A stretch of 64,000 bases of DNA from Escherichia coli (lineage in GTDB: Bacteria; Pseudomonadota; Gammaproteobacteria; Enterobacterales; Enterobacteriaceae): assembly GCF_051903065.1 (NCBI RefSeq), contig NZ_CP178438.1. The stretch is one strand, 5' to 3'. Shown piece after piece: positions 1 to 29,695 of the stretch (position 1 is its first letter; every line of letters begins with the position of its first letter). The translations under genes were made by a program, and so were the position numbers. The notes below the pieces were generated by a model. It made no database searches. It was given only the letters and a program-made list of their open reading frames with translations, and had not been told where the DNA came from.

Positions 1-2271
1 ATGGCCGTTAAAGCCTCCGGGCGTTTTGTCCCTCCGTCAGCATTTGCCGCAGGCACCGGTAAGGCGTTTACCGGTGCTTATGCATGGAACGCGCCACGCG
101 AGGCTGTAGGGCGCGAAAGACCTCTTACACGTGACGAGATGCGTCAGGTGCAAGGTGTTTTATCCACGATTAATCGCCTGCCTTACTTTTTGCGTTCGCT
201 GTTTACTTCACGCTATGACTACATCCGGCGCAATAAAAGCCCGGTGCACGGGTTTTATTTTCTCACATCCACTTTTCAGCGTCGTTTATGGCCGCGCATT
301 GAGCGTGTGAATCAGCGCCATGAAATGAACACCGACGCGTCGTTGCTGTTTCTGGCAGAGCGTGACCACTATGCGCGCCTGCCTGGAATGAATGACAAGG
401 AGCTGAAAAAGTTTGCCGCCCGTATTTCATCGCAGCTTTTCATGATGTATGAGGAACTCAGCGATGCCTGGGTGGATGCGCATGGCGAAAAAGAATCGCT
501 GTTTACGGATGAGGCGCAGGCTCACCTCTATGGTCATGTTGCTGGCGCTGCACGTGCTTTCAATATTTCCCCTCTCTACTGGAAAAAATACCGTAAAGGG
601 CAGATGACCACGAGGCAGGCATATTCTGCCATTGCCCGTCTGTTTAACGATGAGTGGTGGACTCATCAGCTTAAAGGCCAGCGTATGCGCTGGCATGAAG
701 CGTTACTGATAGCTGTCGGGGAGGTCAATAAAGACCGTTCTCCTTATGCCAGTAAACACGCCATTCGTGATGTGCGTGCGCGCCGCCAGGCAAATCTGGA
801 ATTTCTTAAATCGTGTGACCTTGAAAACAGGGAAACCGGCGAGCGCATCGACCTTATCAGTAAGGTGATGGGCAGTATTTCTAATCCTGAAATTCGCCGG
901 ATGGAGCTGATGAACACCATTGCCGGTATTGAGCGTTACGCCGCCGCAGAGGGTGATGTGGGGATGTTTATCACGCTGACCGCGCCGTCAAAGTATCACC
1001 CGACTCGTCAGGTCAGAAAAGGCGAAAGTAAAACCGTTCAGCTTAATCACGGCTGGAACGATGAGGCATTTAATCCAAAGGATGCGCAGCGTTATCTCTG
1101 CCGCATCTGGAGCCTGATGCGCACGGCATTCAAGGATAATGATTTACAGGTCTACGGTTTGCGTGTCGTCGAGCCACACCACGACGGAACGCCACACTGG
1201 CATATGATGCTTTTTTGTAATCCACGCCAGCGTAACCAGATTATCGAAATCATGCGTCGCTATGCGCTCAAAGAGGATGGTGACGAAAGAGGAGCCGCGC
1301 GAAACCGTTTTCAGGCAAAGCACCTTAACCGGGGCGGTGCTGCGGGATATATCGCGAAATACATTTCAAAAAATATCGACGGCTATGCACTGGATGGTCA
1401 GCTCGATAACGATACCGGCAGACCGCTGAAAGACACTGCTGCGGCTGTTACCGCATGGGCGTCAACGTGGCGCATCCCACAATTTAAAACGGTTGGACTG
1501 CCGACAATGGGGGCTTACCGTGAACTACGCAAATTGCCTCGCGGCGTCAGTATTGCTGATGAGTTTGACGAACGCGTCGAGGCTGCTCGCGCTGCCGCAG
1601 ACAGTGGTGATTTTGCGTTGTATATCAGCGCGCAGGGTGGGGCAAATGTCCCGCGCGATTGTCAGACTGTCAGGGTTGCCCGTAGCCCGTCGGATGACGT
1701 TAACGAGTACGAGGAAGAAGTCGAGAGAGTGGTCGGCATTTACGCGCCGCATCTCGGCGCGCGTCATATTCATATCACCAGAACGACGGACTGGCGCATT
1801 GTGCCGAAAGTTCCGGTCGTTGAGCCTTTGACTTTAAAAAGCGGAATCGCCGCGCCTCGGAGTCCTGTCAATAACTGTGGAAAGCTCACCGGTGGTGATA
1901 CTTCGTTACCGGCTCCCACACCTTCTGAACACGCCGCAGCAGTGCTTAATCTGGTTGATGACGGTGTTATCGAATGGAATGACCAGGAGGTCGTGAGGGC
2001 GCTCAGAAGCGCATTAAAACACGGCCTGAGAAGACCAAACCGTCAGCAAAGAAACGGAAGTCCGTTAAAACCGCATGAAATAGCGCCATCGGCCAGACTG
2101 ACCAGGTCGGAACGAATGCAAATTACCCGTATCCGTGTTGACCTTGCTCAGAACGGTATCAGGCCGCAGCGATGGGAGATTGAGACGCTGGCGCGTGGCG
2201 CGACCGTAAATTATGGCGGGAAAGGATTCACGTATCCGGTCGCTGATGAGTGGCCGGAATTTGTAGTATAA
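1..2271 (+). CDS. A: P2-type replication initiation endonuclease gpA (rolling-circle, HUH family)
   Basis: 756-aa ORF starting at position 1; N-terminus MAVKASGRFVPPSAF matches my recollection of P2 gpA; HxH-like motif HWHMMLF and Tyr-rich YIAKYISK segment; followed by cos and Q/P as in P2 prophage order. Confidence 0.9.
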   Translation: MAVKASGRFVPPSAFAAGTGKAFTGAYAWNAPREAVGRERPLTRDEMRQVQGVLSTINRLPYFLRSLFTSRYDYIRRNKSPVHGFYFLTSTFQRRLWPRIERVNQRHEMNTDASLLFLAERDHYARLPGMNDKELKKFAARISSQLFMMYEELSDAWVDAHGEKESLFTDEAQAHLYGHVAGAARAFNISPLYWKKYRKGQMTTRQAYSAIARLFNDEWWTHQLKGQRMRWHEALLIAVGEVNKDRSPYASKHAIRDVRARRQANLEFLKSCDLENRETGERIDLISKVMGSISNPEIRRMELMNTIAGIERYAAAEGDVGMFITLTAPSKYHPTRQVRKGESKTVQLNHGWNDEAFNPKDAQRYLCRIWSLMRTAFKDNDLQVYGLRVVEPHHDGTPHWHMMLFCNPRQRNQIIEIMRRYALKEDGDERGAARNRFQAKHLNRGGAAGYIAKYISKNIDGYALDGQLDNDTGRPLKDTAAAVTAWASTWRIPQFKTVGLPTMGAYRELRKLPRGVSIADEFDERVEAARAAADSGDFALYISAQGGANVPRDCQTVRVARSPSDDVNEYEEEVERVVGIYAPHLGARHIHITRTTDWRIVPKVPVVEPLTLKSGIAAPRSPVNNCGKLTGGDTSLPAPTPSEHAAAVLNLVDDGVIEWNDQEVVRALRSALKHGLRRPNRQQRNGSPLKPHEIAPSARLTRSERMQITRIRVDLAQNGIRPQRWEIETLARGATVNYGGKGFTYPVADEWPEFVV

Positions 2272-2510
2272 GATAGCGCTTCAGGCTGTAATGCATTGTT
2301 TTGTATAGCATACTACATTTTTTGTAACATCTGTTCATGTTTTCTTTTCTATGCGTCATACTACGGCTATGGGTGGTCAGAGAAACAGGTTGCTGCTTAA
2401 ATGTATAAAAAGAGATGCTTTCATTTTTGATGAGATTTGCCATAACGTGGAGTATATATGGTAAAACTTATGAGACATAACATTTATACTATTATTAAAA
2501 AGGAGATTAT

Positions 2511-4178
2511 ATGCTGAGAACTTTTACAGGACAAAATTATAAAGCATACGAAAGCTTTAAGTTAGATTTAAAGCCATTGACAATATTGTTAGGTGCAAAT
2601 AGTTGTGGAAAAAGTGCACTAATTAACTCTTTGTTGATGTTTTCTCAGACAGTTGATTCAATGTCATTGTCTGACTCTGCTCTACGGCTGAATGGACCTA
2701 AAGTGGGAATGGGGGAAGCATTAAATATTATAAAAAATAAAGATGACTCCAAAACACTTAACTTTAGCTTTGATTTTTCTGATAATAGCGTAGTTAAAAA
2801 TGGCATTGATACTCTGAGAAGAGAAACTTTAGAATCATTTGCTATGATTATGCGATTCACTATACAGACAGTAAAAAATAATGATGAGTTGGTCGCGAAG
2901 GCCAATAATTTGATAAATGAATCTTTGAATGCTATTGTTAATTTTGATGAGTTTGAGGAGGCTAAATTAAATATTATTGCTGATAAATTGTGCCAGTTGA
3001 TTATGCTTTTTAGAGATGCTGGCAATAATATTATGTTTAGCCGGGCTACCTCAGAAAACTTACGCAGATTTATATATGAATGCCCATTGAAGAGAATCAA
3101 AGATTGCCTAACTAAAGTTGTTTCTATTTCAGGAAATAAATTGTCTGCATCTAAAATAAGTTATGACTTCAGATATGATAAAAATAAAGGTGTGGTAAAG
3201 GTTTCGAGATTTGTTCTTCTAAATAAGAATGATGAAAGAATAGTTGAACTGTTACCCAAAAAGAATAATGTCGTTGTATTGTCGGATGTTATCCCTCAAG
3301 AAGTATTTAGAGGATGTAAGTCTGATATCTTAGAAATCATGAATCCTTATTCTTTGGGGCTATTCCCTGTCAATGAAGGACGTGGTTTTTATGTTTTTTT
3401 TGGAAATTCCTACAACCCTGTTGTTAACTTTTTGTCACATGTTGTTTCTCTGGGAGTATTAATGCTTTCAAAAATGTTTGATGGCGAAAATGTTAATCAT
3501 GTCAGCCCGTTGAGGGCATTTCCTCAGCGTTATTATTTATTAGATAAAACAGTCAATCATGCTCAGTTAAATTCTGCTGATGGCTCTGAGTTGGCGGAGA
3601 TTCTGAAGAAAAATACAAAAATAACAGAAAACATAAACCTTCTTCTCGCTGAATTTAACTTAGCGGTTGATATAGTTAGAGTTAATGACATAATTCATAA
3701 GATAGTTATAAACCAAGATGCTGTTAATTTAGAATTGACAGATGTAGGGTTTGGAATATCACAAGTGTTGCCTGTCTTGGTTCAAGCTTATTTGTCACCA
3801 AAGGGCTCGATTACAATAATAGAACAACCAGAAATACATTTGCATCCTAAAATGCAGGCATGGTTAACTGACGCATTAATTAAAATATCTATGCAAGAAA
3901 AGAAAATTTTTATTATTGAAACACATAGTGATGCATTAGTTAGACGGATTAGATTAAGAATTGTTGATGAATCAAGCGAACTTACTGAGGACCATGTGGC
4001 AATCTATCATCTTGAGCGAGATGAAGAGGGAACATCAACCTTACTAAATAGAGTGGCTGTGAATTCTGATGGAGATATCACATGGCCAAATGAGTTTATG
4101 GATGTTGAGATTCAGGATACAATTAGAATACAGGAATTAAAGATACAAAAAATAATGAACTCAAAGGGAGTTCATTGA
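2511..4178 (+). CDS. ABC/OLD-type (AAA_15/AAA_21-like) ATPase, cargo gene 1 of A-Q hotspot; candidate defence ATPase (AriA/AbiLi/PtuA-like)
   Basis: 555 aa; Walker A GANSCGKS near N-terminus; Walker B/D-loop-like IIEQPEIHLHP and H-loop-like ETHSD near C-terminus with ~400-aa insertion between; very AT-rich; strong RBS AGGAG upstream. Confidence 0.75.
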   Translation: MLRTFTGQNYKAYESFKLDLKPLTILLGANSCGKSALINSLLMFSQTVDSMSLSDSALRLNGPKVGMGEALNIIKNKDDSKTLNFSFDFSDNSVVKNGIDTLRRETLESFAMIMRFTIQTVKNNDELVAKANNLINESLNAIVNFDEFEEAKLNIIADKLCQLIMLFRDAGNNIMFSRATSENLRRFIYECPLKRIKDCLTKVVSISGNKLSASKISYDFRYDKNKGVVKVSRFVLLNKNDERIVELLPKKNNVVVLSDVIPQEVFRGCKSDILEIMNPYSLGLFPVNEGRGFYVFFGNSYNPVVNFLSHVVSLGVLMLSKMFDGENVNHVSPLRAFPQRYYLLDKTVNHAQLNSADGSELAEILKKNTKITENINLLLAEFNLAVDIVRVNDIIHKIVINQDAVNLELTDVGFGISQVLPVLVQAYLSPKGSITIIEQPEIHLHPKMQAWLTDALIKISMQEKKIFIIETHSDALVRRIRLRIVDESSELTEDHVAIYHLERDEEGTSTLLNRVAVNSDGDITWPNEFMDVEIQDTIRIQELKIQKIMNSKGVH

Positions 4179-4179
4179 T

Positions 4180-5181
4180 ATGCTTTGTGCTGTTTGTTTG
4201 TGTCCTGAATTTGTTGCTGCTAATATTTCTGATGTTAAAGTTTTTAGCGGTTTTTTTATTGAAACCATTGTTAATGGTGAAAATGAGTTGATTCTTGATG
4301 CTGATGGAAAAATTCGCTTAGGTTATTTAAAGTCTTGCGGAAACAACAAGGATTCTTTTTTGTTTTTTAAGAAGTGGGAGTCTGAGTTATCTAAAGCTCC
4401 TTCAGGCAAGATATTGCGTACACCAGTGCCGAATAGTTCTGAGGATATTAAGGATATAGTTGTTTGTGCAGTTGCTAATGCAGCCACTACTTTTGATAAG
4501 CATATCGTAGTGTTAGATAATAATAGTTACTCTGGATATATTGATGAATTAATCAGGCAAAGGATTAATTTGTTAAATCTTAATAGTATAAGCTTAATAT
4601 CAAAGGATGGTCGAGTGCAGCGTCCTTTGAATTTTATAAAGTTTGATAGTGATTTATCTTGGGTGCTTCAAAGATTGGGGCGTCGCTCTGCTAAAGGATA
4701 TGGTGAAGATGATTTTAATGATTTTATACGGGATATGTTATTAGCTAAGAATTATGAGGTAAAAGATCAAACTAGAGAGGGAGAGTCTCAATCTGGTAAA
4801 AGTGCGGGTGAATTAGATCTTGTTATTGAAGATAAAGGAAATCTATTTGCTATAATAGAAGCATTGATTTTAAAATCTCTAGATCAAGCTAACATATTAA
4901 AGCATTATTCAAAGCTAATTAGTAACTATAATCCTATTAATGTTAAACGCTTGTTTTTAATTGCTTATTATACTGGTGCAAAATTTGATGCTTGGTGTGA
5001 GAGATACATTGATTATCTAAAAGAGATTACTCCGGTAGATATTGGTGTAGAATCTCATGAGATAGTTGGGATTAAAGAAGTGGAGACTCCATATATAGGT
5101 TTGAGAAAAATTGAACATCATTTTAGATATGCGGGAGAACATTATTTTTGTGTTCATTATGCAGTCAAGATGGCTCGGTGA
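4180..5181 (+). CDS. Partner protein of hotspot ATPase, putative nuclease effector (PD-(D/E)xK-like or TOPRIM/DUF4435-like)
   Basis: 333 aa; ATG 1 nt after upstream TGA (translational coupling); motifs GELDLVIEDKG (D-x3-E-x-K) and IETIV..LDADG (E...DxD); AT-rich. Confidence 0.6.
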   Translation: MLCAVCLCPEFVAANISDVKVFSGFFIETIVNGENELILDADGKIRLGYLKSCGNNKDSFLFFKKWESELSKAPSGKILRTPVPNSSEDIKDIVVCAVANAATTFDKHIVVLDNNSYSGYIDELIRQRINLLNLNSISLISKDGRVQRPLNFIKFDSDLSWVLQRLGRRSAKGYGEDDFNDFIRDMLLAKNYEVKDQTREGESQSGKSAGELDLVIEDKGNLFAIIEALILKSLDQANILKHYSKLISNYNPINVKRLFLIAYYTGAKFDAWCERYIDYLKEITPVDIGVESHEIVGIKEVETPYIGLRKIEHHFRYAGEHYFCVHYAVKMAR

Positions 5182-5193
5182 TGTTTAATATGA

Positions 5194-5218
5194 ATGCACC
5201 TATAGGGTGCATCATTTT
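5194..5218 (+). terminator. Putative terminator of the hotspot operon
   Basis: Hairpin ATGCACC-TATA-GGGTGCAT followed by CATTTTG directly after the stop at 5181. Confidence 0.45.
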
Positions 5219-5318
5219 GCATGTTTAAATACGTTCTCTATGTATGTGCGCTAGGCTTGACTGGCGCGCTTGTACTATGTTTATGCAACTGCATTAAAAC
5301 CGACCCATGAAGCGGGCG

Positions 5319-5337
5319 GGCGAGGCGGGGAAAGCAC
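5319..5337. other. cos: P2-type cos site (19-nt cohesive end sequence)
   Basis: GGCGAGGCGGGGAAAGCAC matches the P2 cohesive-end sequence as I recall it; lies between the A-side cargo and portal gene Q, where P2 cos sits. Confidence 0.6.
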
Positions 5338-5501: not shown

Positions 5502-5506
5502 GATGT

Positions 5507-6541
5507 TCAGCCGTTGTCAGTGTCCAGTGAGTAGTTTTTAAATCGGATGACCTCCTGACCGAGCCAGCCGTTTATCTCGCGGATCCTGTCCTGTAACGGG
5601 ATAAGCTCATTGCGGACAAAGACCTTTGCTACTTTCTCAATATCGCCCAGCGACCCGACGTTCTCCGGCTTGCCGCCCATCAACTGAAAGGGGATGCGGT
5701 GCGCGTCCAGCAGGTCTGCGGCACTGGCTTTTTTGATATTAAAAAAATCGTCCTTCGTCGCCACTTCACTGAGCGGGATAATTTTAATGCCGTCGGCTTT
5801 TCCCTGCGGGGCATAGAGAAACAGGTTTTTAAAGTTGTTGCGGCCTTTCGACTTCACCATGTTTTCGCGAAGCATTTCGATATCGTTGCGATCCTGCACG
5901 GCATCCGTGACGTACATGATGTATCCGGCATGTGCGCCGTTTTCGTAATACTTGCGGCGGAACAGAGTGGCCGACTCATTCAGCCAGGCAGAGTTAAGGG
6001 CGCTGAGATATTCCGGCAGGCCGTACAGCTCCTGATTAATATCCGGCTCCAGCAGGTGAAACACGGAGCCGGGCGCGAAAGGTGTCGGCTCGTTGAAGGA
6101 CGGCACCCACCAGTAAACATCCTCTTCCACGCCACGGCGGGTATATTTTGCCGGTGAGGTTTCCAGTCTGATGACCTTACCGGTGGTGCTGTAACGCTTT
6201 TCCAGAAACGCATTGCCGAACACCAGAAAATCCAGCACAAAGCGGCTGAAATCCTGCTGGGAAAGCCACGGGTGCGGAATAAACGTTGAAGCCAGAATAT
6301 TACGTTTGACGTAAATCGGTGAGCTGTGATGTACGGCAGCACGCAGGCTTTTTGCCAGACCGGTAAAGCTGACCGGTGGCTCATACCATCTGCCGTTACT
6401 GATGCACTCGACGTAATCCAGAATGTCACGGCGGTCGAGTACCGGCACCGGTTCACCAAAGGTGAATGCCTCCATTTTCGGGGCGCTGGCGGTCATTTTT
6501 TTTGCCGCTAGTCGCGGTGTTTTCCCTTTTTTCTTGCTCAT
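5507..6541 (-). CDS. Q: Portal protein gpQ
   Basis: 344 aa, size and sequence character of P2 Q; overlaps start of P; conserved position next to cos. Confidence 0.9.
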   Translation of the reverse strand: MSKKKGKTPRLAAKKMTASAPKMEAFTFGEPVPVLDRRDILDYVECISNGRWYEPPVSFTGLAKSLRAAVHHSSPIYVKRNILASTFIPHPWLSQQDFSRFVLDFLVFGNAFLEKRYSTTGKVIRLETSPAKYTRRGVEEDVYWWVPSFNEPTPFAPGSVFHLLEPDINQELYGLPEYLSALNSAWLNESATLFRRKYYENGAHAGYIMYVTDAVQDRNDIEMLRENMVKSKGRNNFKNLFLYAPQGKADGIKIIPLSEVATKDDFFNIKKASAADLLDAHRIPFQLMGGKPENVGSLGDIEKVAKVFVRNELIPLQDRIREINGWLGQEVIRFKNYSLDTDNG

Positions 6542-13813: not shown

Positions 13814-14243
13814 TGCCGTCACGGTGCTGAAAACCAGTCCAGAGATGCTGCGGATATTCGTGGATAACGGGAGTATTGCTTCCACACTGGCGACGTCGCT
13901 GTCATTCGAAAAGCGTTACACGCTCAATGTGATTGTGACCGACTTTACCGGTGATTTTGACCTGCTCATCGTGCCGGTGCTGGCGTGGCTGCGGGAAAAT
14001 CAGCCCGACATCATGACCACCGACGAAGGCCAGAAAAAGGGCTTCACGTTTTATGCAGACATCAACAATGACAGCAGCTTTGATATCAGTATCAGCCTGA
14101 TGCTGACCGAGCGCACGCTGGTCAGTGAGGTTGACGGTGCGCTGCATGTGAAGAATATCCCGGAACCTCCGCCGCCGGAGCCGGTCACCCGCCCGGTGGA
14201 GCTTTATATCAATGGCGAACTGGTGAGCAAGTGGGATGAATGA
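13776..14243 (+). CDS. R: Tail completion protein gpR
   Basis: 155 aa, P2 gpR size and position. Confidence 0.85.
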   Translation: MLKPDSLRRALTDAVTVLKTSPEMLRIFVDNGSIASTLATSLSFEKRYTLNVIVTDFTGDFDLLIVPVLAWLRENQPDIMTTDEGQKKGFTFYADINNDSSFDISISLMLTERTLVSEVDGALHVKNIPEPPPPEPVTRPVELYINGELVSKWDE

Positions 14244-14694
14244 GTTTAAGCGTTTTGAAGACCGGCTGACCGGACTGATTGAATCGCTGTCACCGTCAGG
14301 GCGTCGGCGACTGAGCGCCGAACTGGCGAAACGTCTGCGGCAGAGTCAGCAGCAGCGAATTAAATTACAAAAAGGCCCGGATGGTACGCCGTATGTACCG
14401 AGAAAAAACCAGCCAGTGCGAAATAAGAAAGGCCGGATAAAGCGGGAAATGTTTGTGAAATTACGCACTAACCGGTTTATGAAAGCAACAGGTAGCGAGA
14501 GTGCGGCGGTGGTGGAGTTTGCCAGCGGAGTGCAACGAATTGCGCGAGTACATCAATTAGGGCTTAAGGATAAGCCGGGGCGTAATAGTGCTGTGGTGGA
14601 ATATCCTGTTCGTGAGTTATTTGGTTTTGACAAGGAATCTATACAATTGATAGAAAGGGAGTTATTAGTGATTCTATCGAAAGATGTTATATGA
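14236..14694 (+). CDS. S: Tail completion protein gpS (3' end AT-rich, possibly chimeric)
   Basis: 152 aa; N-terminus MNEFKRFEDRLTGL P2 S-like; last ~35 codons are AT-rich and join the downstream cargo gene. Confidence 0.8.
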   Translation: MNEFKRFEDRLTGLIESLSPSGRRRLSAELAKRLRQSQQQRIKLQKGPDGTPYVPRKNQPVRNKKGRIKREMFVKLRTNRFMKATGSESAAVVEFASGVQRIARVHQLGLKDKPGRNSAVVEYPVRELFGFDKESIQLIERELLVILSKDVI

Positions 14695-15446
14695 GACGGG
14701 TGTTTATGGATGAAAAGTTTACTATTTTGAGAAAAAGAGTAAAGCACTCTCAAAAGAAAGTTATGGATTGTATTATTGCTGACCATAATGCTGATATATG
14801 TGTGTTATGCGGGAGTCCTGACGATATTACTCGTGAGCACATTATTCCTCAGTGGGCCTTTGAGTCAAATGCTGAAAAATCTTTAATTAATAAAAAGAAT
14901 AATCAGTCAACTCATTACATTAAAGCCACTGTACCAGCATGCAGAGTGTGCAATTCTGATTTGCTGGGAGTGTTTGAGTATAACCTGAAGAAATTTCTTA
15001 CGGAAAAGAGGGGAGAGGAGTTAACAGATTATGAGTATGATTGCATCATATGGTGGTTGCAATACATGGGTTTTAAGTTGCAATTAATGGATTTGCGGAA
15101 CCGCTTTCTCAGGTATAAAGGTGGTGATTATATCCCGTTCCTTGCAAACTTCCCGGTTGCAATGTTTTGGGGGAATGTCGATACGACGCCGGGGGATGTC
15201 TTCAGGATTATACGAAAATCGCGACGCAATCTGATGTCGAAATGGAAGGATAAAAAACATAATTCTTTGATGGTTTTTGAAACATCAAACAAGAGTTTTC
15301 ATTTCTTTCATAAGGTTGATGAATTTATTTTTATTGAAATGCCTCTGGTTAAGAAGGCGTTTTTCTTCTTTTTTAATAAAGAATTTGACAGCCATGATTT
15401 AGCTCATGAGGAGTGTATGAAGATTATAGAGAAGTGCTACAACTAA
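14691..15446 (+). CDS. HNH-motif nuclease-like cargo protein between S and V (P2 orf30 position); candidate defence or accessory gene
   Basis: 251 aa; CVLCGSPDDITREHIIPQW ... PACRVCNSD (CxxC...H...CxxCN His-Me finger pattern); strongly AT-rich; start may instead be ATG at 14706. Confidence 0.6.
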   Translation: MRRVFMDEKFTILRKRVKHSQKKVMDCIIADHNADICVLCGSPDDITREHIIPQWAFESNAEKSLINKKNNQSTHYIKATVPACRVCNSDLLGVFEYNLKKFLTEKRGEELTDYEYDCIIWWLQYMGFKLQLMDLRNRFLRYKGGDYIPFLANFPVAMFWGNVDTTPGDVFRIIRKSRRNLMSKWKDKKHNSLMVFETSNKSFHFFHKVDEFIFIEMPLVKKAFFFFFNKEFDSHDLAHEECMKIIEKCYN

Positions 15447-15455
15447 TATTTATTA

Positions 15456-15465
15456 TGTTGTGTCA
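15456..15465 (+). promoter_or_regulatory. Late-promoter-associated motif TGTTGTGTCA upstream of V (P_V region), part of palindrome TGTCACAGCTGACA
   Basis: ~68 bp upstream of V start; same motif as upstream of O and FI. Confidence 0.45.
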
Positions 15466-15523
15466 CAGCTGACAGAATCCTCCATGATTGCTGCTGGTAT
15501 CGTCCAGCGGCATCCTTCCCGTT

Positions 15524-16159
15524 ATGAACACTCTCGCAAATATTCAGGAACTCGCGCGCGCACTGCGCAACATGATTCGTACCGGCCTTGTCGTCGAAAC
15601 CAACCTTAAAGCCGGTCGCTGCCGTGTGCAGACCGGCGGCATGTGCACCGACTGGCTTCAGTGGCTGACCCATCGCGCCGGACGTTCGTGCACATGGTGG
15701 GCACCTTCCGTGGGGGAGCAGGTGCTGATTCTGGCCGTGGGCGGTGAACTTGACACGGCGTTTGTTCTGCCGGGGATTTATTCCGGCGATAACCCTCCGC
15801 CGTCTGCGTCGGCGGATGCCCTGCATATCCGTTTCCCTGACGGGGCGGTGATTGAGTATGAACCCGAAACCAGTGCACTTACGGTAAGCGGAATTAAAAC
15901 GGCCAGCGTGACGGCTTCTGATTCTGTTACCGCCACGGTGCCGGTGGTCATGGTGAAAGCATCAACCCGCGTCACCCTGGACACACCGGAGGTGGTCTGC
16001 ACCAACAGGCTGATTACCGGCACGCTGGAAGTGCAGAAGGGCGGGACGATGCGCGGCAACATTGAACACACCGGCGGTGAACTCTCATCAAACGGTAAGG
16101 TACTTCATACCCATAAACACCCCGGCGACAGCGGCGGCACAACAGGGGGACCTCTATGA
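15524..16159 (+). CDS. V: Baseplate spike/assembly protein gpV
   Basis: Start at MNTLANIQELARALRNM (ATG 15524) inside ORF 15488..16159. Confidence 0.88.
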   Translation: MNTLANIQELARALRNMIRTGLVVETNLKAGRCRVQTGGMCTDWLQWLTHRAGRSCTWWAPSVGEQVLILAVGGELDTAFVLPGIYSGDNPPPSASADALHIRFPDGAVIEYEPETSALTVSGIKTASVTASDSVTATVPVVMVKASTRVTLDTPEVVCTNRLITGTLEVQKGGTMRGNIEHTGGELSSNGKVLHTHKHPGDSGGTTGGPL

Positions 16160-17949: not shown

Positions 17950-19827
17950 ATGAGCACAAAATTCAAAACCGTTATCACCACTGCCGGTGCAGCAAAGCTG
18001 GCAGCGGCAACCGCACCGGGAGGGCGGAAGGTCAACATTACCACGATGGCCGTCGGGGATGGCGGTGGTAAATTGCCTGTCCCGGATGCCGGACAGACCG
18101 GGCTTATCCACGAAGTCTGGCGACATACGCTGAACAAAATCAGCCAGGACAAACGAAACAGTAATTATATTATCGCAGAGCTGGTTATTCCGCCGGAGGT
18201 GGGCGGTTTCTGGATGCGTGAGCTTGGCCTGTACGATGATGCGGGAACGTTAATTGCCGTGGCGAACATGGCCGAAAGTTATAAGCCTGCCCTTGCCGAA
18301 GGCTCAGGGCGTTCGCAGACCTGCCGCATGGTCATCATCGTCAGCAGTGTGGCCTCAGTGGCGCTGACCATTGACACCACAACGGTGATGGCAACGCAGG
18401 ATTACGTTGATGACAAAATTGCAGAACATGAACAGTCACGACGTCACCCTGACGCCTCGCTGACCGCAAAAGGTTTTACTCAGTTAAGCAGTGCGACCAA
18501 CAGCACGTCTGAAACGCTCGCCGCAACACCAAAAGCTGTTAAGACGGTAATGGATGAAGCGAACAAAAAAGCGCCATTAAACAGCCCTGCACTGACCGGA
18601 ACGCCAACGACGCCAACTGCGCGACAGGGAACGAATAATACTCAGATCGCAAACACGGCTTTCGTTATGGCCGCGATTGCCGCCCTTGTAGACTCGTCGC
18701 CTGACGCACTGAATACGCTGAACGAGCTGGCGGCGGCGCTGGGCAATGACCCGAATTTTGCTACCTCCATGACTAATGCGCTTGCGGGTAAGCAACCGAA
18801 AGATGCCACTCTGACGGCGCTGGCGGGGCTTGCTACTGCGGCAGACAGCTTTCCGTATTTTACGGGGAATGATGTTGCCAGTTTGGCAACCCTGACAAAA
18901 GTCGGGCGGGATATTCTGGCTAAAGCGACCATTGCTGCCGTTATCGAATACCTCGGTTTGCAGGAAACGGTAAACAGGGCCAGGAACGCGGTGCAAAAGA
19001 ATGGCGATACCTTGTCCGGCGGGATTACTTTTGAAAACGACTCAATCCTTGCCTGGATTCGAAATACTGACTGGGCGAAGATTGGATTTAAAAATGATGC
19101 CGATGGTGACGCTGATTCATACATGTGGTTTGAAACGGGGGATAACGGCAATGAATATTTCAAATGGAGAAGCCGCCAGAGTACCACAACAAAAGACCTG
19201 ATGACGCTGAAATGGGATGCACTAAATATTCTTGTTAATGCCGTCATTAATGGCTGTCTTGGAGTTGGTACGACGAATGCACTAGGTGGTAGCTCTATTG
19301 TCCTTGGTGATAATGATACCGGATTTAAACAGAATGGAGACGGTATTCTTGATGTTTATGCTAACAGTCAGCGTGTATTCCGTTTTCAGAATGGAGTGGC
19401 TATTGCTTTTAAAAATATTCAGGCAGGGGATAGTAAAAAGTTCTCGCTATCCAGCTCTAACACATCCACGAAGAATATTATCTTTAATTTATGGGGTGCT
19501 TCCAACCGTCCAGTGGTTGCAGAGTTAGGCGATGAGTCCGGATGGCATTTCTATAGCCAGCGAAATACAGATAACTCGGTAATATTTGCTGTTAACGGTC
19601 AGATGCAACCCAGCAACTGGGGGAATTTTGATTCCCGCTATGTGAAAGATGTTCGCCTGGGTACGCGAGTTGTTCAATTGATGGCGCGAGGTGGTCGTTA
19701 TGAAAAAGCCGGACACACGATTACCGGATTAAGAATCATTGGTGAAGTAGATGGCGATGATGAGGCCATCTTCAGGCCGATACAAAAATACATCAATGGC
19801 ACATGGTATAACGTTGCGCAGGTGTAA
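17950..19827 (+). CDS. H: Tail fibre protein gpH
   Basis: 625 aa; MSTKFKTVITTAGAAKLAAATAPG N-terminus as recalled for P2 H; C-terminal part AT-richer. Confidence 0.88.
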   Translation: MSTKFKTVITTAGAAKLAAATAPGGRKVNITTMAVGDGGGKLPVPDAGQTGLIHEVWRHTLNKISQDKRNSNYIIAELVIPPEVGGFWMRELGLYDDAGTLIAVANMAESYKPALAEGSGRSQTCRMVIIVSSVASVALTIDTTTVMATQDYVDDKIAEHEQSRRHPDASLTAKGFTQLSSATNSTSETLAATPKAVKTVMDEANKKAPLNSPALTGTPTTPTARQGTNNTQIANTAFVMAAIAALVDSSPDALNTLNELAAALGNDPNFATSMTNALAGKQPKDATLTALAGLATAADSFPYFTGNDVASLATLTKVGRDILAKATIAAVIEYLGLQETVNRARNAVQKNGDTLSGGITFENDSILAWIRNTDWAKIGFKNDADGDADSYMWFETGDNGNEYFKWRSRQSTTTKDLMTLKWDALNILVNAVINGCLGVGTTNALGGSSIVLGDNDTGFKQNGDGILDVYANSQRVFRFQNGVAIAFKNIQAGDSKKFSLSSSNTSTKNIIFNLWGASNRPVVAELGDESGWHFYSQRNTDNSVIFAVNGQMQPSNWGNFDSRYVKDVRLGTRVVQLMARGGRYEKAGHTITGLRIIGEVDGDDEAIFRPIQKYINGTWYNVAQV

Positions 19828-19830
19828 GTA

Positions 19831-20358
19831 ATGCAGCATTTAAAGAACATTAAGTCAGGTAATCCAAAAACAAAAGAGCAATATCAGCTAACAAAGAATT
19901 TTGATGTTATCTGGTTATGGTCCGAAGACGGAAAAAACTGGTATGAGGAAGTAAGTAATTTTCAGCCAGACACAATAAAGATTGTTTACGATGAAAATAA
20001 TATTATTGTCGCCATCACCAGAGATGCTTCAACGCTTAATCCTGAAGGTTTTAGCGTCGTTGAGGTTCCTGATATTACTGCCAACCGGCGTGCTGATGAC
20101 TCAGGTAAATGGATGTTTAAGGATGGTGCCGTGATTAAGCGGATTTATACGGCAGACGAACAGCAGAAACTGGCGGAATTACATAAGGCAGCTTTGCTTT
20201 CCGAAGCTGAATCCGTGATTTTGCCGCTGGAGCGCGCGGTCAGGCTGAATATGGCAACAGATGAGGAGCGTAGTCGACTGGAGGCATGGGAACGCTATAG
20301 TGTTCTGGTCAGTCGTGTGGATCCTGCAAATCCTGAATGGCCGGAAATGCCGCAATAA
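19831..20358 (+). CDS. G: Tail fibre assembly chaperone gpG
   Basis: 175 aa [21 protein letters not shown]2 G-like. Confidence 0.88.
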
Positions 20359-20457
20359 GTTGTATGAGCTCTGGTGTGAGCTTACATATCTATGGCACAG
20401 AGTAAAGCCTAATCTGACAGTCCGTTCTGTGCCAGTAGCGGACGTTTGAATAAATTA

Positions 20458-20486
20458 TTGACTAACTAAAGTTTTTGGCATTAAAT
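20458..20486 (+). promoter_or_regulatory. Putative sigma70 promoter for the HEPN-motif cargo gene
   Basis: TTGACT, 17-bp spacer, TTAAAT; ~35 bp upstream of GGAG RBS and ATG 20527. Confidence 0.35.
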
Positions 20487-20526
20487 TTTCAATTAAAATG
20501 TTCGCATTGATTTATTGGAGTAAATA

Positions 20527-21480
20527 ATGGATATACATGCAAAAAGAGTTGGCAGTCCACTTTATAAAATTATTATGTACTTAAATAAGTATGAAGAAGA
20601 TACACTGGAAGACATAAAACTTCAGTTTCTTTTAAAAAATTTAAAAACTCATTTCAAGAAACTGTTTTATATGATTACTTACATTAATAAAATTCAAAAA
20701 GATGCTGAGTTCATCAGAAAACATGATGCAACATCAATTGTCAGCATTAGTGCTATTGAGTATTGCTATTATAAAATCAGCACGATATGGGATATTGCAT
20801 ATCAGATAGCTGATAAATTAATTTTCCCAACTAAAAAAAATGGCAATAAATATGATTACCTTGAAAATCATTTCCAGCAATATGCACAGGAATTTCCAGA
20901 TTTGAATTTAAAATGGTATAAGGACTTTAATAAAATAAGAAATAAGATAGTTCATGGAGGGATAACAGTAAATCCTTATTATGTCAACGATGATAATATT
21001 AAAACAAAGATTTGTTTCCAAGCATATGACTCTGATCTAAACGATCTGATTCAACCTCATATGATGTATTCAAATAGATTCAATAACAATATTAATTTTG
21101 CTGATTACTATTTTACCTTTTATACTCATCTTCTCTATTCATATCTTTTTGATTTTTTTGATTTTGTACTTCTTGAGCTAAACAAAGATAAATCACATGA
21201 TTTAGACAATCTTATTCTTGATGATATACCGCACAAATTGTTTGGTGCTCATCATGAAACATGGTTGTTATCTGATGTTGATCAATTTATGAAAATTACA
21301 AGAGAAATGATTTCCCTACAAATAGCTGATGGTTGTTTAAATAAAATTGAGAAAATACCCTCAAGTGATATTGAACATTTTTTTAACAACTTTCCATTTT
21401 GTCTTATGACAAAGGTTAGCTCCGGAGATTGGGTATTGGTTGAGGATAAAGCGGCTGAAACAAAGTCATCGGACACTTAA
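20527..21480 (+). CDS. HEPN-motif (Rx4H) protein, Abi-like candidate, cargo in the G-FI (Z/fun) hotspot
   Basis: 317 aa; very AT-rich, Lys/Asn/Tyr/Phe-rich; motif RNKIVHGG (R-x4-H); own promoter-like elements. Confidence 0.55.
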   Translation: MDIHAKRVGSPLYKIIMYLNKYEEDTLEDIKLQFLLKNLKTHFKKLFYMITYINKIQKDAEFIRKHDATSIVSISAIEYCYYKISTIWDIAYQIADKLIFPTKKNGNKYDYLENHFQQYAQEFPDLNLKWYKDFNKIRNKIVHGGITVNPYYVNDDNIKTKICFQAYDSDLNDLIQPHMMYSNRFNNNINFADYYFTFYTHLLYSYLFDFFDFVLLELNKDKSHDLDNLILDDIPHKLFGAHHETWLLSDVDQFMKITREMISLQIADGCLNKIEKIPSSDIEHFFNNFPFCLMTKVSSGDWVLVEDKAAETKSSDT

Positions 21481-21774
21481 ATTTTTTTTGTGCCAAAGTC
21501 TACTCCTCGCTCGTCACAGGCTTTGGCATTCGTTTCAACAACCAAGTGATAGCATATATTGTGACCTGCACCCCGTTGATTCATACATCCTCGATGTAAG
21601 CAATCCCTTGAGAACGTCCACTCCTCGCTCTTAGCAGATCACACGGTTCTTCAAACGATCCGCTTCGTACCAGAAACGAACTTTTATCTCAAATTTGAAC
21701 CTTTTAGTGGATGACGACGTTTGTGTCTTCAAGTAGTCTTAAAAGCATGCGGATAGTGCATAGGAAAAGCAGAA

Positions 21775-22611
21775 GTGATCGATGACCCACTACCAGAAAA
21801 CTGGCAAGACCTCCAGACAGGGGTCCAACGTATATTCCGTAATGTTGGCTTGTTTGCAGAAGTCGAGGTCGATTTAGAAACCCCGCGTGGCTCGGTGAAT
21901 GTGGATGTTCTTGCTACAGATGTTAGGAGCGTGGACAAAATCAGATACATTGTGGAATGCAAAAACTGGGGTAGTTCTATACCACAGACGGTGGTCCATT
22001 CGTTCACCACGGTAATGCATGAAACCGGGGCTAATATTGGATTTATTATTTCAAAGCACGGGCTTCAGCAGGGTGCTAAACAGTACACTCAAAACACCAA
22101 TATTATTGGGATGACATACCTTGAGTTCCAAAAAAGGTATTTTGAGGCTTGGTGGAATAGATACTTTTGTCCACGTATCGGTGATGCTGCAGACGAACCG
22201 CTTCAGTACGTCGAACCAATCAACTCTAAACGAGATCGCGAATACGCCAAGCTAAGCCTTCAAGCACAAGAGAAGTTCGATCAGTTAAGGCAAGAGAAAG
22301 GTGTATCAGTAGTGGTTCTCTCTATGCTCAATTACAAGTTTATGTCGAAAGCATTAAACACTGGTAACTTGCTGGAAGTCCCAAATAATCTGGATGATTT
22401 TAAGAACAGAGTTCTCTCCCGAATATGTCCTCACATTGAATGGCATTGTGATACGTACAGAGAGCTGCTAGAGCTCATCTTGCAATACTTATCAGTCACA
22501 AAAGCAGAGTTTGATGCAATATTTGGTCGGGCCATCTTTGAACCGCCAAGTAGTATCACGGGGGTTACGGCTGAAGGTCCCCCTTTAGACGATGGTATTT
22601 ATCATCATTAG
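21775..22611 (+). CDS. PD-(D/E)xK restriction-endonuclease-like (Mrr_cat-like) protein, cargo in the G-FI hotspot
   Basis: 278 aa, GTG start; N-terminal VNVDVLATD ... YIVECKNW (D ... E-x-K nuclease signature). Confidence 0.55.
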   Translation: MIDDPLPENWQDLQTGVQRIFRNVGLFAEVEVDLETPRGSVNVDVLATDVRSVDKIRYIVECKNWGSSIPQTVVHSFTTVMHETGANIGFIISKHGLQQGAKQYTQNTNIIGMTYLEFQKRYFEAWWNRYFCPRIGDAADEPLQYVEPINSKRDREYAKLSLQAQEKFDQLRQEKGVSVVVLSMLNYKFMSKALNTGNLLEVPNNLDDFKNRVLSRICPHIEWHCDTYRELLELILQYLSVTKAEFDAIFGRAIFEPPSSITGVTAEGPPLDDGIYHH

Positions 22612-22732
22612 TTTCATACATAAACCATGCTCCCGCATGTCCGCATTTCGCTCAAAGCAGACTGTCAGATTTGATAGCGTTTGGGCTATGTAAACTGTCA
22701 GTCGGAAAATGAGTGTGTGCAAATCAGGACAG

Positions 22733-22760
22733 GCGGGCGAATTGCCCGCATTTTCTTTAT
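22733..22760 (+). terminator. Rho-independent terminator after the G-FI cargo genes
   Basis: GCGGGC-GAATT-GCCCGC followed by TTTTCTTTAT. Confidence 0.6.
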
Positions 22761-22762
22761 CT

Positions 22763-22854: not shown

Positions 22855-24045
22855 ATGAGCGACTATCATCATGGCGTGCAGGTGCTGGAGATTAACGACG
22901 GCACCCGCGTCATTTCCACCGTATCCACTGCCATTGTCGGCATGGTCTGCACGGCCAGCGATGCGGATGCGGAAATCTTCCCCCTCAATAAACCGGTGCT
23001 GATTACCAATGTGCAGAGCGCAATTGCAAAGGCCGGTAAAAAAGGCACGCTGGCGGCATCGTTGCAGGCCATCGCCGACCAGTCAAAACCGGTCACAGTT
23101 GTCGTGCGCGTGGAAGACGGCACCGGCGATGACGAAGAAACGAAACTCGCGCAGACCGTTTCCAATATCATCGGCACCACCGACGAAAACGGTCAGTACA
23201 CCGGACTGAAAGCCCTGCTGGCGGCGGAGTCGGTAACCGGTGTTAAACCGCGTATTCTCGGCGTGCCGGGACTGGACACCAAAGAGGTGGCTGTTGCACT
23301 GGCATCAGTCTGTCAGAAGCTGCGCGCTTTCGGGTATATCAGCGCATGGGGCTGTAAAACCATTTCCGAGGTGAAAGCCTACCGTCAGAATTTCAGCCAG
23401 CGTGAGCTGATGGTCATCTGGCCGGATTTCCTCGCATGGGATACGGTCAGCAGCACCACCGCCACCGCGTATGCCACCGCCCGTGCGCTGGGTCTGCGCG
23501 CTAAAATCGACCAGGAGCAGGGCTGGCATAAAACGCTGTCCAATGTCGGGGTAAACGGTGTTACCGGCATCAGTGCTTCTGTATTCTGGGATTTGCAGGA
23601 GTCCGGCACCGATGCTGACCTGCTTAACGAGTCAGGCGTCACTACGCTGATTCGTCGCGACGGTTTCCGATTCTGGGGTAACCGTACCTGCTCTGATGAC
23701 CCGCTGTTCCTCTTTGAAAACTACACCCGCACCGCGCAGGTGCTGGCCGACACGATGGCTGAGGCGCACATGTGGGCGGTGGACAAGCCCATCACCGCAA
23801 CGCTGATTCGCGACATCGTTGACGGCATCAATGCCAAATTCCGTGAGCTGAAAACAAACGGCTATATCGTGGATGCGACCTGCTGGTTCAGCGAAGAATC
23901 CAACGATGCGGAAACCCTCAAGGCCGGAAAACTGTATATCGACTACGACTATACACCGGTGCCTCCTCTCGAAAACCTGACCCTGCGCCAGCGTATTACC
24001 GATAAATACCTGGCAAATCTGGTCACCTCGGTTAACAGCAATTAA
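22855..24045 (+). CDS. FI: Tail sheath protein FI
   Basis: 396 aa, P2 FI-like. Confidence 0.9.
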   Translation: MSDYHHGVQVLEINDGTRVISTVSTAIVGMVCTASDADAEIFPLNKPVLITNVQSAIAKAGKKGTLAASLQAIADQSKPVTVVVRVEDGTGDDEETKLAQTVSNIIGTTDENGQYTGLKALLAAESVTGVKPRILGVPGLDTKEVAVALASVCQKLRAFGYISAWGCKTISEVKAYRQNFSQRELMVIWPDFLAWDTVSSTTATAYATARALGLRAKIDQEQGWHKTLSNVGVNGVTGISASVFWDLQESGTDADLLNESGVTTLIRRDGFRFWGNRTCSDDPLFLFENYTRTAQVLADTMAEAHMWAVDKPITATLIRDIVDGINAKFRELKTNGYIVDATCWFSEESNDAETLKAGKLYIDYDYTPVPPLENLTLRQRITDKYLANLVTSVNSN

Positions 24046-24576: not shown

Positions 24577-24632
24577 TTTTCATCCGGTCAGCCTGGCTGA
24601 CCGGTTAACCCCGATTCAGAAGAGAGAAAACC

Positions 24633-27500: not shown

Positions 27501-27514
27501 GGAGGTGACGAAAA

Positions 27515-27994
27515 ATGATGCTCGCGTTAGGTATGTTTGTTTTTATGCGCCAGACGCTGCCACACCAGACCATGCAGCGTGAATCAGATTATCGCTGGCC
27601 GTCAAATTCCCGTATCGGTAAACGGGATGCCTACCAGTTTCTCGGTGTGGGTGAGGAAAACATGACGCTGGCCGGTGTGCTTTATCCCGAACTGACCGGC
27701 GGCAAGCTGACGATGACCACGCTCAGGCTGATGGCAGAGGAAGGCCGGGCGTGGCCGTTGCTGGATGGCACCGGCATGATTTACGGCATGTATGTCATCA
27801 GCAGGGTGAATGAAACAGGGAGTATTTTCTTTGCAGACGGCACACCCCGGAAAATTGATTTTACGCTGTCGCTCACCCGCGTTGATGAATCACTGGCCGC
27901 GCTTTATGGCGATATCGGTAAACAGGCGGAATCGCTCATCGGTAAGGCCGGTAGTCTGGCGACCAGATTCACGGGGATGACGGAGGCGGGATAA
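27515..27994 (+). CDS. U: Tail protein gpU
   Basis: 159 aa, position. Confidence 0.88.
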   Translation: MMLALGMFVFMRQTLPHQTMQRESDYRWPSNSRIGKRDAYQFLGVGEENMTLAGVLYPELTGGKLTMTTLRLMAEEGRAWPLLDGTGMIYGMYVISRVNETGSIFFADGTPRKIDFTLSLTRVDESLAALYGDIGKQAESLIGKAGSLATRFTGMTEAG

Positions 27995-29157
27995 TGCTGG
28001 ATGCGCTGACATTTGATGCAGGCAGTACGCTGACGCCGGATTACATGCTGATGCTCGACAGCAGGGATATTACCGGTAATATCAGCGACCGTCTGATGAG
28101 CATGACCCTGACGGATAACCGGGGCTTTGAGGCTGACCAGCTTGATATTGAACTGAACGATGCCGACGGGCAGGTCGGGCTGCCGGTTCGTGGCGCTGTC
28201 CTGACGGTGTATATCGGCTGGAAAGGTTTTGCTCTGGTATGCAAAGGGAAATTTACCGTTGATGAGGTAGAACACCGGGGCGCGCCGGATGTGGTCACCA
28301 TCCGCGCCAGGAGTGCAGATTTTCGCGGGACGCTCAATTCCCGCCGTGAAGGCTCCTGGCATGACACCACGCTCGGTGCGATTGTTGAGGCGATAGCCTC
28401 CCGTAACAGGCTGGAAGCCAGTGTCGCTCCGTCACTGGCCGGAATTAAAATCCCGCACATCGACCAGTCACAGGAGTCTGATGCAAAATTCCTGACCCGC
28501 CTTGCTGAACGCAACGGCGGTGAGGTGTCGGTAAAAATGGGAAAACTGCTGTTTCTCAAAGCGGGGCAGGGGGTGACGGCCAGCGGTAAAAAAATCCCGC
28601 AGATTACCATCACCCGCAGCGACGGCGACCGTCATCATTTTGCGATTGCTGACCGTGGAGCCTACACCGGCGTAACGGCAAAGTGGTTACACACCAAAGA
28701 CCCGAAGCCGCAAAAGCAGAAGGTAAAACTGAAACGCAAAAAGAAAGAAAAACACCTGCGCGCACTGGAGCACCCGAAAGCAAAACCGGTCAGGCAGAAG
28801 AAAGCGCCAAAAGTACCGGAAGCGCGCGAAGGTGAATACATGGCCGGTGAGGCTGACAACGTTTTTGCCCTGACCACGGTATATGCCACGAAAGCACAGG
28901 CCATGCGTGCCGCTCAGGCGAAGTGGGATAAACTGCAACGGGGCGTTGCGGAGTTCTCCATCAGCCTGGCTACCGGTCGTGCTGATATTTACACGGAAAC
29001 ACCGGTTAAAGTATCAGGCTTTAAGCGCGTCATAGACGAGCAGGGCTGGACAATCACTAAGGTGACACATTTTCTGAATAATAGCGGCTTCACGACGTCC
29101 TTAGAGCTTGAGGTCAGGCTTTCTGATGTGGAGTACGAAACAGAAGATGATGAGTGA
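27994..29157 (+). CDS. D: Tail protein gpD (late gene control D)
   Basis: 387 aa, position. Confidence 0.88.
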   Translation: MLDALTFDAGSTLTPDYMLMLDSRDITGNISDRLMSMTLTDNRGFEADQLDIELNDADGQVGLPVRGAVLTVYIGWKGFALVCKGKFTVDEVEHRGAPDVVTIRARSADFRGTLNSRREGSWHDTTLGAIVEAIASRNRLEASVAPSLAGIKIPHIDQSQESDAKFLTRLAERNGGEVSVKMGKLLFLKAGQGVTASGKKIPQITITRSDGDRHHFAIADRGAYTGVTAKWLHTKDPKPQKQKVKLKRKKKEKHLRALEHPKAKPVRQKKAPKVPEAREGEYMAGEADNVFALTTVYATKAQAMRAAQAKWDKLQRGVAEFSISLATGRADIYTETPVKVSGFKRVIDEQGWTITKVTHFLNNSGFTTSLELEVRLSDVEYETEDDE

Positions 29158-29238
29158 TGTTTTTATTTTATCTGTTTGTTTTATAAGGATAAATTAACTA
29201 AAATGGCACCATCAACAAAACCGGAAGAGGTGCTCGCG

Positions 29239-29457
29239 ATGTTTCATTGTCCTTTATGCCAGCATGCCGCACATGCGCGTACAAGCCGCTATATCACTGA
29301 CACGACAAAAGAGCGTTATCACCAGTGTCAGAACGTGAATTGCAGCGCCACATTCATCACTTATGAGTCGGTACAGCGATACATCGTGAAGCCGGGAGAA
29401 GTCCACGCCGTAAGACCGCACCCGTTGCCGTCAGGGCAGCAAATTATGTGGATGTAA
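29239..29457 (+). CDS. ogr: Late transcription activator Ogr (zinc finger)
   Basis: 72 aa from MFHCPLCQH; Cys pairs CPLC ... CQNVNC; ORF track's longer upstream start not used. Confidence 0.85.
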   Translation: MFHCPLCQHAAHARTSRYITDTTKERYHQCQNVNCSATFITYESVQRYIVKPGEVHAVRPHPLPSGQQIMWM

Positions 29458-29465
29458 TTACAAAC

Positions 29466-29496
29466 AGGAAGCCCCTCAGTCGAGGGGCTTTTTTGT
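29466..29496 (+). terminator. Rho-independent terminator after ogr
   Basis: GAAGCCCCTC-AGTC-GAGGGGCTTTTTTG. Confidence 0.75.
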
Positions 29497-29695
29497 CGAT
29501 GTGGTCAATGTGTGGACGTGACCAGAAATAAATCCTTTTATTTCATGTGATTAGATATCAAAAAATGTCACCAATAACTGACATTGCGGTGTTTCTCCAG
29601 ATGTGGCCCATCTGAGGCCGTGTTGGTGCGCAGCTCGAAGGCTACGTCGAGTCTGTTTTGGCAGTCACCTTAAAGTATAGATAGCTGACAAAAAA

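Follow-up and report, generated by a model that had tools for sequence, protein, structure and literature searches.

Foreign cargo and candidate nuclease modules at the three moron sites of a P2-like Escherichia coli prophage

The stretch of Escherichia coli DNA analyzed here (64,000 nucleotides [nt] of contig NZ_CP178438.1, assembly GCF_051903065.1; hereafter, the window) begins with the right-hand part of a P2-family prophage in which all three classical P2 moron sites hold horizontally acquired DNA of low G+C content (GC) that is unrelated to the cargo of P2 itself. The locus as a whole is best explained as a prophage whose three moron sites have been filled by foreign cargo that includes nuclease-based, competitor-blocking modules, a reading to which we would assign a probability of roughly 0.8. 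The five cargo open reading frames (ORFs), all intact in the window, form four modules that, judging from the encoded proteins, are probably anti-phage or competitor-exclusion nucleases; by keeping competing phages out, such modules would be of advantage to the lysogen or to the phage itself.

The layout is a well-known property of P2-like phages and is not new. The three moron sites of P2 were recognized about two decades ago, and systematic searches for defence systems now draw on them. The new content is the annotation, that is, a Menshen-like pair lacking NsnA, a Cys4-HNH-like moron in a late operon, an Apea-like HEPN protein, and a Mrr_cat protein. The value of the locus therefore lies in its cargo: four intact, rare candidate nuclease modules on one prophage.

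Three Islands in a P2 Backbone

Positions 1–29550 of the window are the A-to-ogr part of a P2-family (Peduovirus) prophage that adjoins pflB, and the backbone is nearly that of P2. When aligned with phage P2 (NC_001895) using blastn, which was also used to set the limits of the islands, all backbone segments are 96–98% identical and follow the same gene order, A, Q, P, O, N, M, L, X, Y, K, lysA/B, R, S, V, W, J, I, H, G, FI, FII, E, T, U, D, and ogr. Positions 1–25000 matched 236 phage records, the best being R18C, HQ103, P2, and Wphi (approximately 97% identity over 70–79% of the query).

Composition was profiled in 400-nt sliding windows, and z scores were calculated against backbone windows of equal length. 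The backbone has a GC of 0.551 overall and lies between 0.52 and 0.63 in the sliding profile, which is interrupted by three deep troughs. The troughs correspond to the breaks in P2 homology, at 2261/5290, 14460/15524, and 20446/22640. Island 1 (2262–5289; GC 0.332, z = -9.1) occupies the TO (tin/old) site between gene A and cos/Q; island 2 (14461–15523; GC 0.390, z = -4.8) the S-V (orf30) site; and island 3 (20447–22639; GC 0.363, z = -6.9) the Z/fun site between genes G and FI. Island 3 is of double composition, with a HEPN half at 0.280 and a Mrr half at 0.441. The GC of third codon positions tells the same story, being 0.22–0.44 in the cargo genes versus 0.53–0.72 in the backbone genes, except for S, H, and G (0.42–0.51).

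The original prediction, made from the sequence alone, had described three AT-rich islands interrupting a GC-richer, P2-collinear backbone after genes A, S, and G, and each of these points was borne out. Its island coordinates were close overall, but island 2 begins inside gene S, at 14461, and island 3 ends at 22639 rather than at 22760.

The break points coincide with those of the P2 cargo, i.e., orf91/tin/old after A, orf30 after S, and fun(Z) after G. The three insertion points are the same, the limits of the cargo fall within tens of bases of those in P2, the cargo is likewise low in GC, and P2 Old, like the ATPase of island 1, is an ABC ATPase coupled to a nuclease. The resemblance ends there, since no cargo gene in the window is homologous to P2 cargo; direct comparison with P2 orf30 and Old revealed no homology past the Walker motifs, which alone are common with Old. 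Nor did islands 1 and 3 match anything in the isolated-phage collection except a 3-kb P2-EC5 fragment that corresponds to island 1. Cargo would be exchanged by recombination in the conserved flanks, with the crossover of island 2 falling inside gene S.

Island 1: an ATPase and Probable Nuclease Cassette

The first gene of island 1, ORF555 (2511–4178, plus strand), encodes an NsnB-like ABC ATPase of the AAA_15/AAA_21 type. NsnB is its best PADLOC model (2.3e-51), followed by HEC-03B, PDC-M55A, and AriA (3.3e-28), and Pfam returns AAA_15 (5.5e-15). The protein carries a Walker A motif (G28-x4-GK34S), a Walker B motif (IIE438-Q439), a G-F-G signature, and an H-loop histidine (H472), all of which are invariant in the Pseudomonas, Enterobacter, and E. 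coli copies.

ORF333 (4180–5181, plus strand; 333 amino acids [aa]) starts 1 nt past the stop codon of ORF555. It has no usable match in Pfam, NCBIfam, PADLOC, or PHROGs. Its fold combines a PIN-like N-terminal domain (approximately residues 1–140) with a C-terminal domain of the restriction-endonuclease fold, and its invariant residues include E200, D213, E227, and K245. The products of this gene and of the cargo gene of island 2, until now simply "hypothetical proteins," can thereby be assigned a fold or a motif. Pairs of the ORF555/ORF333 type travel together in a Pseudomonas veronii island and at an Enterobacter chromosomal site, and island 1 is thus a conserved two-gene cassette.

The sequence itself has been seen before. 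Island 1 is 99.6% identical to GenBank AM157364, "P2-EC5 proviral ORF555 and ORF333" from strain ECOR5, a record deposited in 2006. That sequence is said to have been deposited by Odegrip et al. 2006. In Table S5 of Rousset et al., the pair is catalogued as "AAA_15/AAA_21 + hypothetical" (PMC9122126). A peptide search for the N-termini of the five cargo proteins in the supplementary tables of the same study found none of them (PMC9122126), and there is thus no sign that the pair was among the systems tested there. A literature search by accession likewise returned no mention.

The closest known system is Menshen (NsnA-NsnB-NsnC; Millman 2022; PMC12065111). According to Li et al. 2025, NsnB departs from other ATPases in its Walker B motif (DE to EN) and its signature (SGG to GxG), and NsnC joins an inactive PIN N-terminal domain to a nuclease C-terminal domain, for which 15 families are listed (PMC12065111). 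ORF555 has NsnB as its best match and shares both an atypical Walker B (EQ) and the GxG signature; ORF333 resembles NsnC in that its nuclease domain comes after an N-terminal domain of inactive-PIN type; and the two genes adjoin.

There are also clear differences. The restriction-endonuclease fold of ORF333 lies outside the 15 listed C-terminal families of NsnC (PMC12065111), and the protein does not match the PADLOC NsnC models. No NsnA (a ParB-DUF262 + ParBDB sensor) was found in the window locus or in the Pseudomonas and Enterobacter loci, and the space between gene A and ORF555 is only 239 bp. At the C-terminus of ORF555, DUF3696 has no Pfam match even at E <= 10, though a structural equivalent is conceivable. 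Island 1 is therefore closest to the NsnB-NsnC core of Menshen, yet it fails membership in Menshen proper.

How might such a cassette work? By analogy with the predicted NsnB4-NsnC2 complex, PARIS, and Septu, an oligomer of the ORF555 ATPase probably holds the effector ORF333 through the catalytically inactive PIN-like domain, and a phage cue would cause ORF555 to release or activate the PD-(D/E)xK nuclease domain. Since there is no NsnA, ORF555 itself would have to be the sensor. It is possible, at a little under even odds, that ORF555/ORF333 is a distinct, self-sufficient two-component defence system in which an NsnB-type ATPase, having lost the ParB/DUF262 sensor, detects the phage cue by itself and governs an unlisted class of effector, an inactive PIN-PD-(D/E)xK DNase. 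The mobility of the cassette among P2 prophages, a Pseudomonas island, and chromosomal sites belongs to this reading and is put forward just as tentatively. If true, island 1 would show an NsnB-NsnC core working without NsnA, which bears on how Menshen senses phages.

Chromosomal cassettes in Enterobacter roggenkampii and in gut metagenomes encode an ATPase without its N-terminus, and hence without Walker A, next to an intact ORF333 homologue; the E. roggenkampii cassette adjoins an insertion sequence (IS) remnant. These truncated copies may represent a decaying or a rewired system.

Island 2: a Probable Late-Operon Moron and a Mosaic Gene S

Gene S (14236–14694, plus strand) is a mosaic: its first 118 nt are those of P2, and the remaining two-thirds are only about 55–60% identical and AT-richer. 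The recombination joint of island 2 thus lies inside an essential tail gene, and because S is identical to P2 only as far as nt 118, the cargo arrived together with a foreign 3' end of S.

The cargo gene (14691–15446, plus strand) encodes a Cys4-HNH-like protein of 251 aa that matches phrog_10503 over its full length (3.9e-178). Its start overlaps the stop codon of S (ATGA), and no terminator or promoter is predicted between the two; the late O operon therefore probably ends with this ORF. The gene is the same as R18C gp15/ORF16, at the same site and within a 13-kb stretch that is 97.5% identical to R18C, where the start codon has been annotated at the ATG at 14706. Whereas the authors of R18C found no motif in ORF16, we identified an invariant Cys4-HNH pattern.

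That pattern emerges from the homologues, of which approximately 25 full-length clusters were found in a search of 1.8 billion representatives. Across 22 full-length homologues there is little or no variation at C37xxC40, E49-H50, N70, and C84xxC87-N88. A further 30 N-terminal domains, more distantly related, keep Cys, Glu, and Asn at their positions without exception and the His in at least 90% of cases. A profile of these distant domains has as its best Protein Data Bank (PDB) match the HNH endonuclease 4h9d (E = 0.018), with both Cys pairs and the (D/E)H aligned. Scores against the HNH families themselves are marginal (0.002 for PHROG HNH; 0.39 for Pfam HNH_5, or 0.004 for one member), and the C-terminal ~150 residues form an uncharacterized domain. 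On this evidence, the protein would be an HNH-like nuclease, a call we make with moderate confidence. As a probable member of the late O operon, it may act in the lytic cycle against the DNA of competitors or of the host, or it may be a homing endonuclease.

Island 3: HEPN and Mrr_cat Genes

The first gene of island 3 (20527–21480, plus strand) encodes an Apea-like HEPN protein of 317 aa with the motif R138-N-x3-H143-G-G. In 45 HEPN homologues, R138 and H143 are invariant and N139 is nearly so; the Rx4-6H motif and the four-helix HEPN fold are both present. The protein has no usable match in Pfam, NCBIfam, PADLOC, or PHROGs, and the PADLOC ApeA models in particular give no match at E <= 10. 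It differs from HepS of the Gifsy-1 prophage and from ApeA in its 317-aa length with extra helical and beta elements. The protein is probably a single-protein abortive-infection RNase, as are HepS or ApeA.

The second gene (21775–22611, plus strand) encodes a 278-aa Mrr_cat protein of the PD-(D/E)xK type (Pfam Mrr_cat 7.4e-11, residues 9–111). The catalytic residues can be read from the sequence as D44 and E61-x-K63, so that the core shared with Mrr and type IV restriction enzymes, D...ExK, is intact. The arrangement is unlike that of the usual Mrr, which has an N-terminal DNA-binding domain; here, the catalytic domain is N-terminal, and for the remaining ~170 aa Pfam and PDB searches gave no match. 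The family comprises at least 360 clusters of uniform length across the Proteobacteria, with 60–97% identity between genera, and there is a weak match (3e-5) to the PADLOC candidate PDC-S02. The protein probably cuts foreign, perhaps modified, DNA.

Should one annotate these two genes as a single system? A 295-bp spacer, the difference in GC, and the loss of an intact HEPN ORF beside an intact Mrr gene lead us to treat them as independent modules. The last point comes from an A8 run at 20833–20840 inside the HEPN ORF: in the relative NZ_CP099752, the run is A7 and the ORF is split, with Mrr intact. Island 3 is carried by seven E. coli genomes, and in a further four of these two hypothetical ORFs are annotated in place of HEPN. 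The A8/A7 difference could be phase variation, decay, or a homopolymer assembly error.

The neighbourhoods of homologues agree. A lambdoid prophage carries a 96% identical Mrr gene on its own, beside replication gene P. The genes around the HEPN homologues change from genus to genus among those examined (Vibrio, Dickeya, Pantoea, Pseudomonas, and Aeromonas) and never include Mrr. A 239-aa gene that follows the Vibrio HEPN homologue was considered as a partner and rejected, being unrelated to the Mrr gene and missing in other genera.

Two observations made in passing should be recorded. The lambdoid prophage with the Mrr_cat gene by gene P lies at 497748–510849 of E. coli 210205630, and the same gap holds a different HEPN-domain protein and a SEC-C-domain protein, so that the gap resembles a cargo hotspot in its own right. 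The right-hand junction of island 3 (22626–22645) contains an 8-nt unit, CCGCATGT, and NZ_CP099752 has two extra CCGCATGT copies (16 nt) exactly at the boundary between cargo and backbone.

Cargo Variability among Relatives

Variability was surveyed in 5,426 complete E. coli genomes. At hotspot 1, the cos-proximal flank was found in 2,155 genomes and island 1 in only five. The R-S-V region of hotspot 2 was present in 1,625 genomes, about 75 of which have the 251-aa gene (approximately 4.6% of E. coli P2-like prophages). When 40 of these regions were sampled at even spacing, the site proved empty in about 22, held an orf30-type gene in about eight, and held the 251-aa gene in two. The flanks of hotspot 3 were found in 1,020 genomes and both island-3 genes in seven of the 5,426, with SIR2, Shedu, or HNH genes as alternatives in other E. 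coli genomes.

Named phages vary in the same manner. R18C shares the S-V gene with the window but carries Fic at the first site and small ORFs at the third. Wphi and pro147 both lack cargo at S-V; their first sites hold, respectively, a methylase cluster and retron Ec48 together with a second reverse transcriptase, and their third sites orf44 and a gene for a metal-binding protein. In HQ103, the S-V site is also empty and the cargo differs from that of the window. This comparison had been proposed together with the original prediction, against which uniform composition or the same genes in every relative would have spoken; neither was found, since composition is non-uniform and cargo varies at all three sites.

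Such turnover is in keeping with earlier work. Among 18,150 A-Q loci, Rousset et al. distinguished 1,650 arrangements of genes, and defence systems from this site were validated in the same study (PMC9122126); later surveys described additional defence hotspots in the late genes.

Module Count, Function, and Expression

The original prediction had counted one two-gene module and three single-gene modules, all associated with nucleases by motif. The count agrees with what we found: the island 1 pair recurs in other genera, HEPN and Mrr differ in GC, Mrr occurs alone, and HEPN is split in relatives. The nuclease association also held up, with motifs or folds recognized for all four effectors, though the HNH profile scores are only marginal. 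Given the sites and the domains, defence is the most likely role.

Several points weigh against this reading and the annotator should keep them in mind. In P2, old/tin, orf30, and fun(Z) lie on the opposite strand, and old-tin has its own annotated transcript starts; here, by contrast, all cargo genes are co-oriented with the flanking early or late operons and have no convincing promoters of their own. Defence needs expression in the lysogen, which is therefore uncertain. Moreover, the ORF333, HNH-like, and HEPN proteins match no PADLOC or NCBIfam model.

The claim that two of the islands carry promoters or terminators of their own thus found little support. A sigma-70 promoter scan of the islands returned promoter-like matches that were not above shuffled controls in any of them. 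Directly after ORF333 there is a modest, weak terminator-like hairpin (5194–5212, plus strand; eight pairs, four of them G-C, and a poor T tail). A G+C-rich hairpin with a T run at 22733–22749 (plus strand) was rejected as a cargo terminator; P2 homology is back at 22640, and the alignment places the hairpin in the conserved backbone, upstream of the pF promoter.

Alternative Explanations

The broadest alternative, and an unlikely one, is that the cargo consists of selfish addiction or toxin modules, or of decaying passengers, tolerated at these sites and without a role in phage defence. Damaged copies speak for it: relatives have a frameshift in the HEPN gene, the island-1 ATPase is truncated in Enterobacter, and the PSJ-12 prophage that carries island 1 is scrambled. 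Decay is harder to reconcile with five intact ORFs in the window, with catalytic residues that are invariant across distant homologues, and with a Mrr family whose 60–97% identity across genera points to selection; the same sites in other P2-like phages, moreover, carry experimentally validated defences. For island 1 taken separately, one might ask whether the cassette is PARIS, Septu, or Gabija, i.e., a generic OLD-type ABC ATPase with a nuclease, rather than a member of the Menshen NsnB-NsnC lineage. ORF555 does match AriA (3e-28), GajA, and PtuA models as well as solved PtuA and OLD chains, and the two-gene layout is shared with PARIS (AriA/AriB) and Septu (PtuA/PtuB), which are likewise OLD-type ABC ATPase and nuclease cassettes on P4 and P2 hotspots and whose likely logic, an ATPase oligomer that sequesters a nuclease until triggered, is the same. 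We nevertheless consider this assignment improbable, because NsnB is by far the best model for ORF555 (2e-51), whose Walker B and signature deviate in the NsnB fashion, and because ORF333, examined for the partners of those systems, has neither the DUF4435/TOPRIM of AriB nor the HNH of PtuB; its fold is PIN plus restriction endonuclease, and the PIN-like N-terminal domain is the one that defines NsnC.

A more serious competitor, though still a doubtful one, concerns island 2, which might be a free-standing HNH homing endonuclease gene whose product cuts the empty S-V junction of co-infecting P2-like phages, the gene then being copied in by repair together with part of S. The architecture (an N-terminal HNH-like domain plus the ~150-aa uncharacterized C-terminal domain) would suit such an enzyme, as would the setting of the gene, which has an essential conserved gene on either side, runs in the direction of the late operon, and lacks a promoter of its own. 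The adjacent 3' two-thirds of S were replaced together with the gene, which resembles a co-conversion tract; the S-V junction is empty in most relatives, so that target sites exist; and one homologue adjoins a phage terminase gene. A homing element would, however, be expected to spread, and only ~4.6% of E. coli P2-like prophages carry the gene. The divergence of S (~55–60% identity) is also far above the recoding expected at a homing site; ordinary mosaic recombination, with a P2-like phage of distant kinship as partner, would account for it. A further homologue has integrases as neighbours in a chromosomal island. The S-V gene is a simple test case for whether late-operon morons are defences or homing elements. 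Least probable of the alternatives is that HEPN and Mrr form one two-gene system, be it an RNase and a DNase acting together or a toxin-antitoxin pair. The genes are adjacent, co-oriented, and co-occur at the same site in seven E. coli genomes, but they are 295 bp apart and differ in GC (0.28 vs. 0.44); Mrr is found alone in the lambdoid prophage (96%) and as a uniform single-domain family in many genera, the HEPN homologues of five genera never have it as a neighbour, and it stays intact where HEPN is frameshifted by 1 nt (NZ_CP099752) or annotated as two ORFs (four more of the seven). All four modules taken together, filled moron sites with competitor-blocking nucleases remain the explanation that we prefer.

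Flanking Genes and Other Features of the Window

Hotspot 1 is flanked on the left by gene A, the replication nickase (1–2271, plus strand), a 756-aa ORF that is 96.5% identical to P2 A. Position 1 of the window is the ATG of this gene, and the int/C/cox/B side of the prophage therefore lies beyond the window. On the right is the cos site, with a 19-nt cohesive end at 5319–5337; window positions 5290–5337 align with P2 33546–33593, and 5319 onward corresponds to P2 position 1. Gene Q, the portal gene (5507–6541, minus strand), is the conserved flank that follows. The right flank of hotspot 2 is the baseplate gene V (15524–16159, plus strand), where P2 homology is back at 15524, equivalent to P2 10308. 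Hotspot 3 lies between the tail fibre assembly gene G (19831–20358, plus strand) and the tail sheath gene FI (22855–24045, plus strand).

The ogr gene and the right end of the prophage occupy 29176–29554 (plus strand), with attR near 29545–29554, where homology to both P2 and R18C stops. The host gene pflB lies beyond this end at 29776–32058 on the minus strand. The same pflB/pflA site is occupied in E. coli PSJ-12 by a P2-like prophage that is scrambled and whose island 1 is 100% identical.

The C-terminal half of H together with G (18900–20446) has a GC of 0.447 (z = -3.4), yet it is 95% identical to P2. This AT-richer stretch is an older foreign segment common to the lineage and not a cargo island of the same kind. 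The tail-fibre protein H is 625 aa long here versus 669 aa in P2.

Rfam and tRNA scans of the entire window returned no matches. Further along, in host DNA downstream of pflB, GC falls sharply to 0.31 at 33000–33400; this AT-rich dip is probably the focA-pflB upstream regulatory region.

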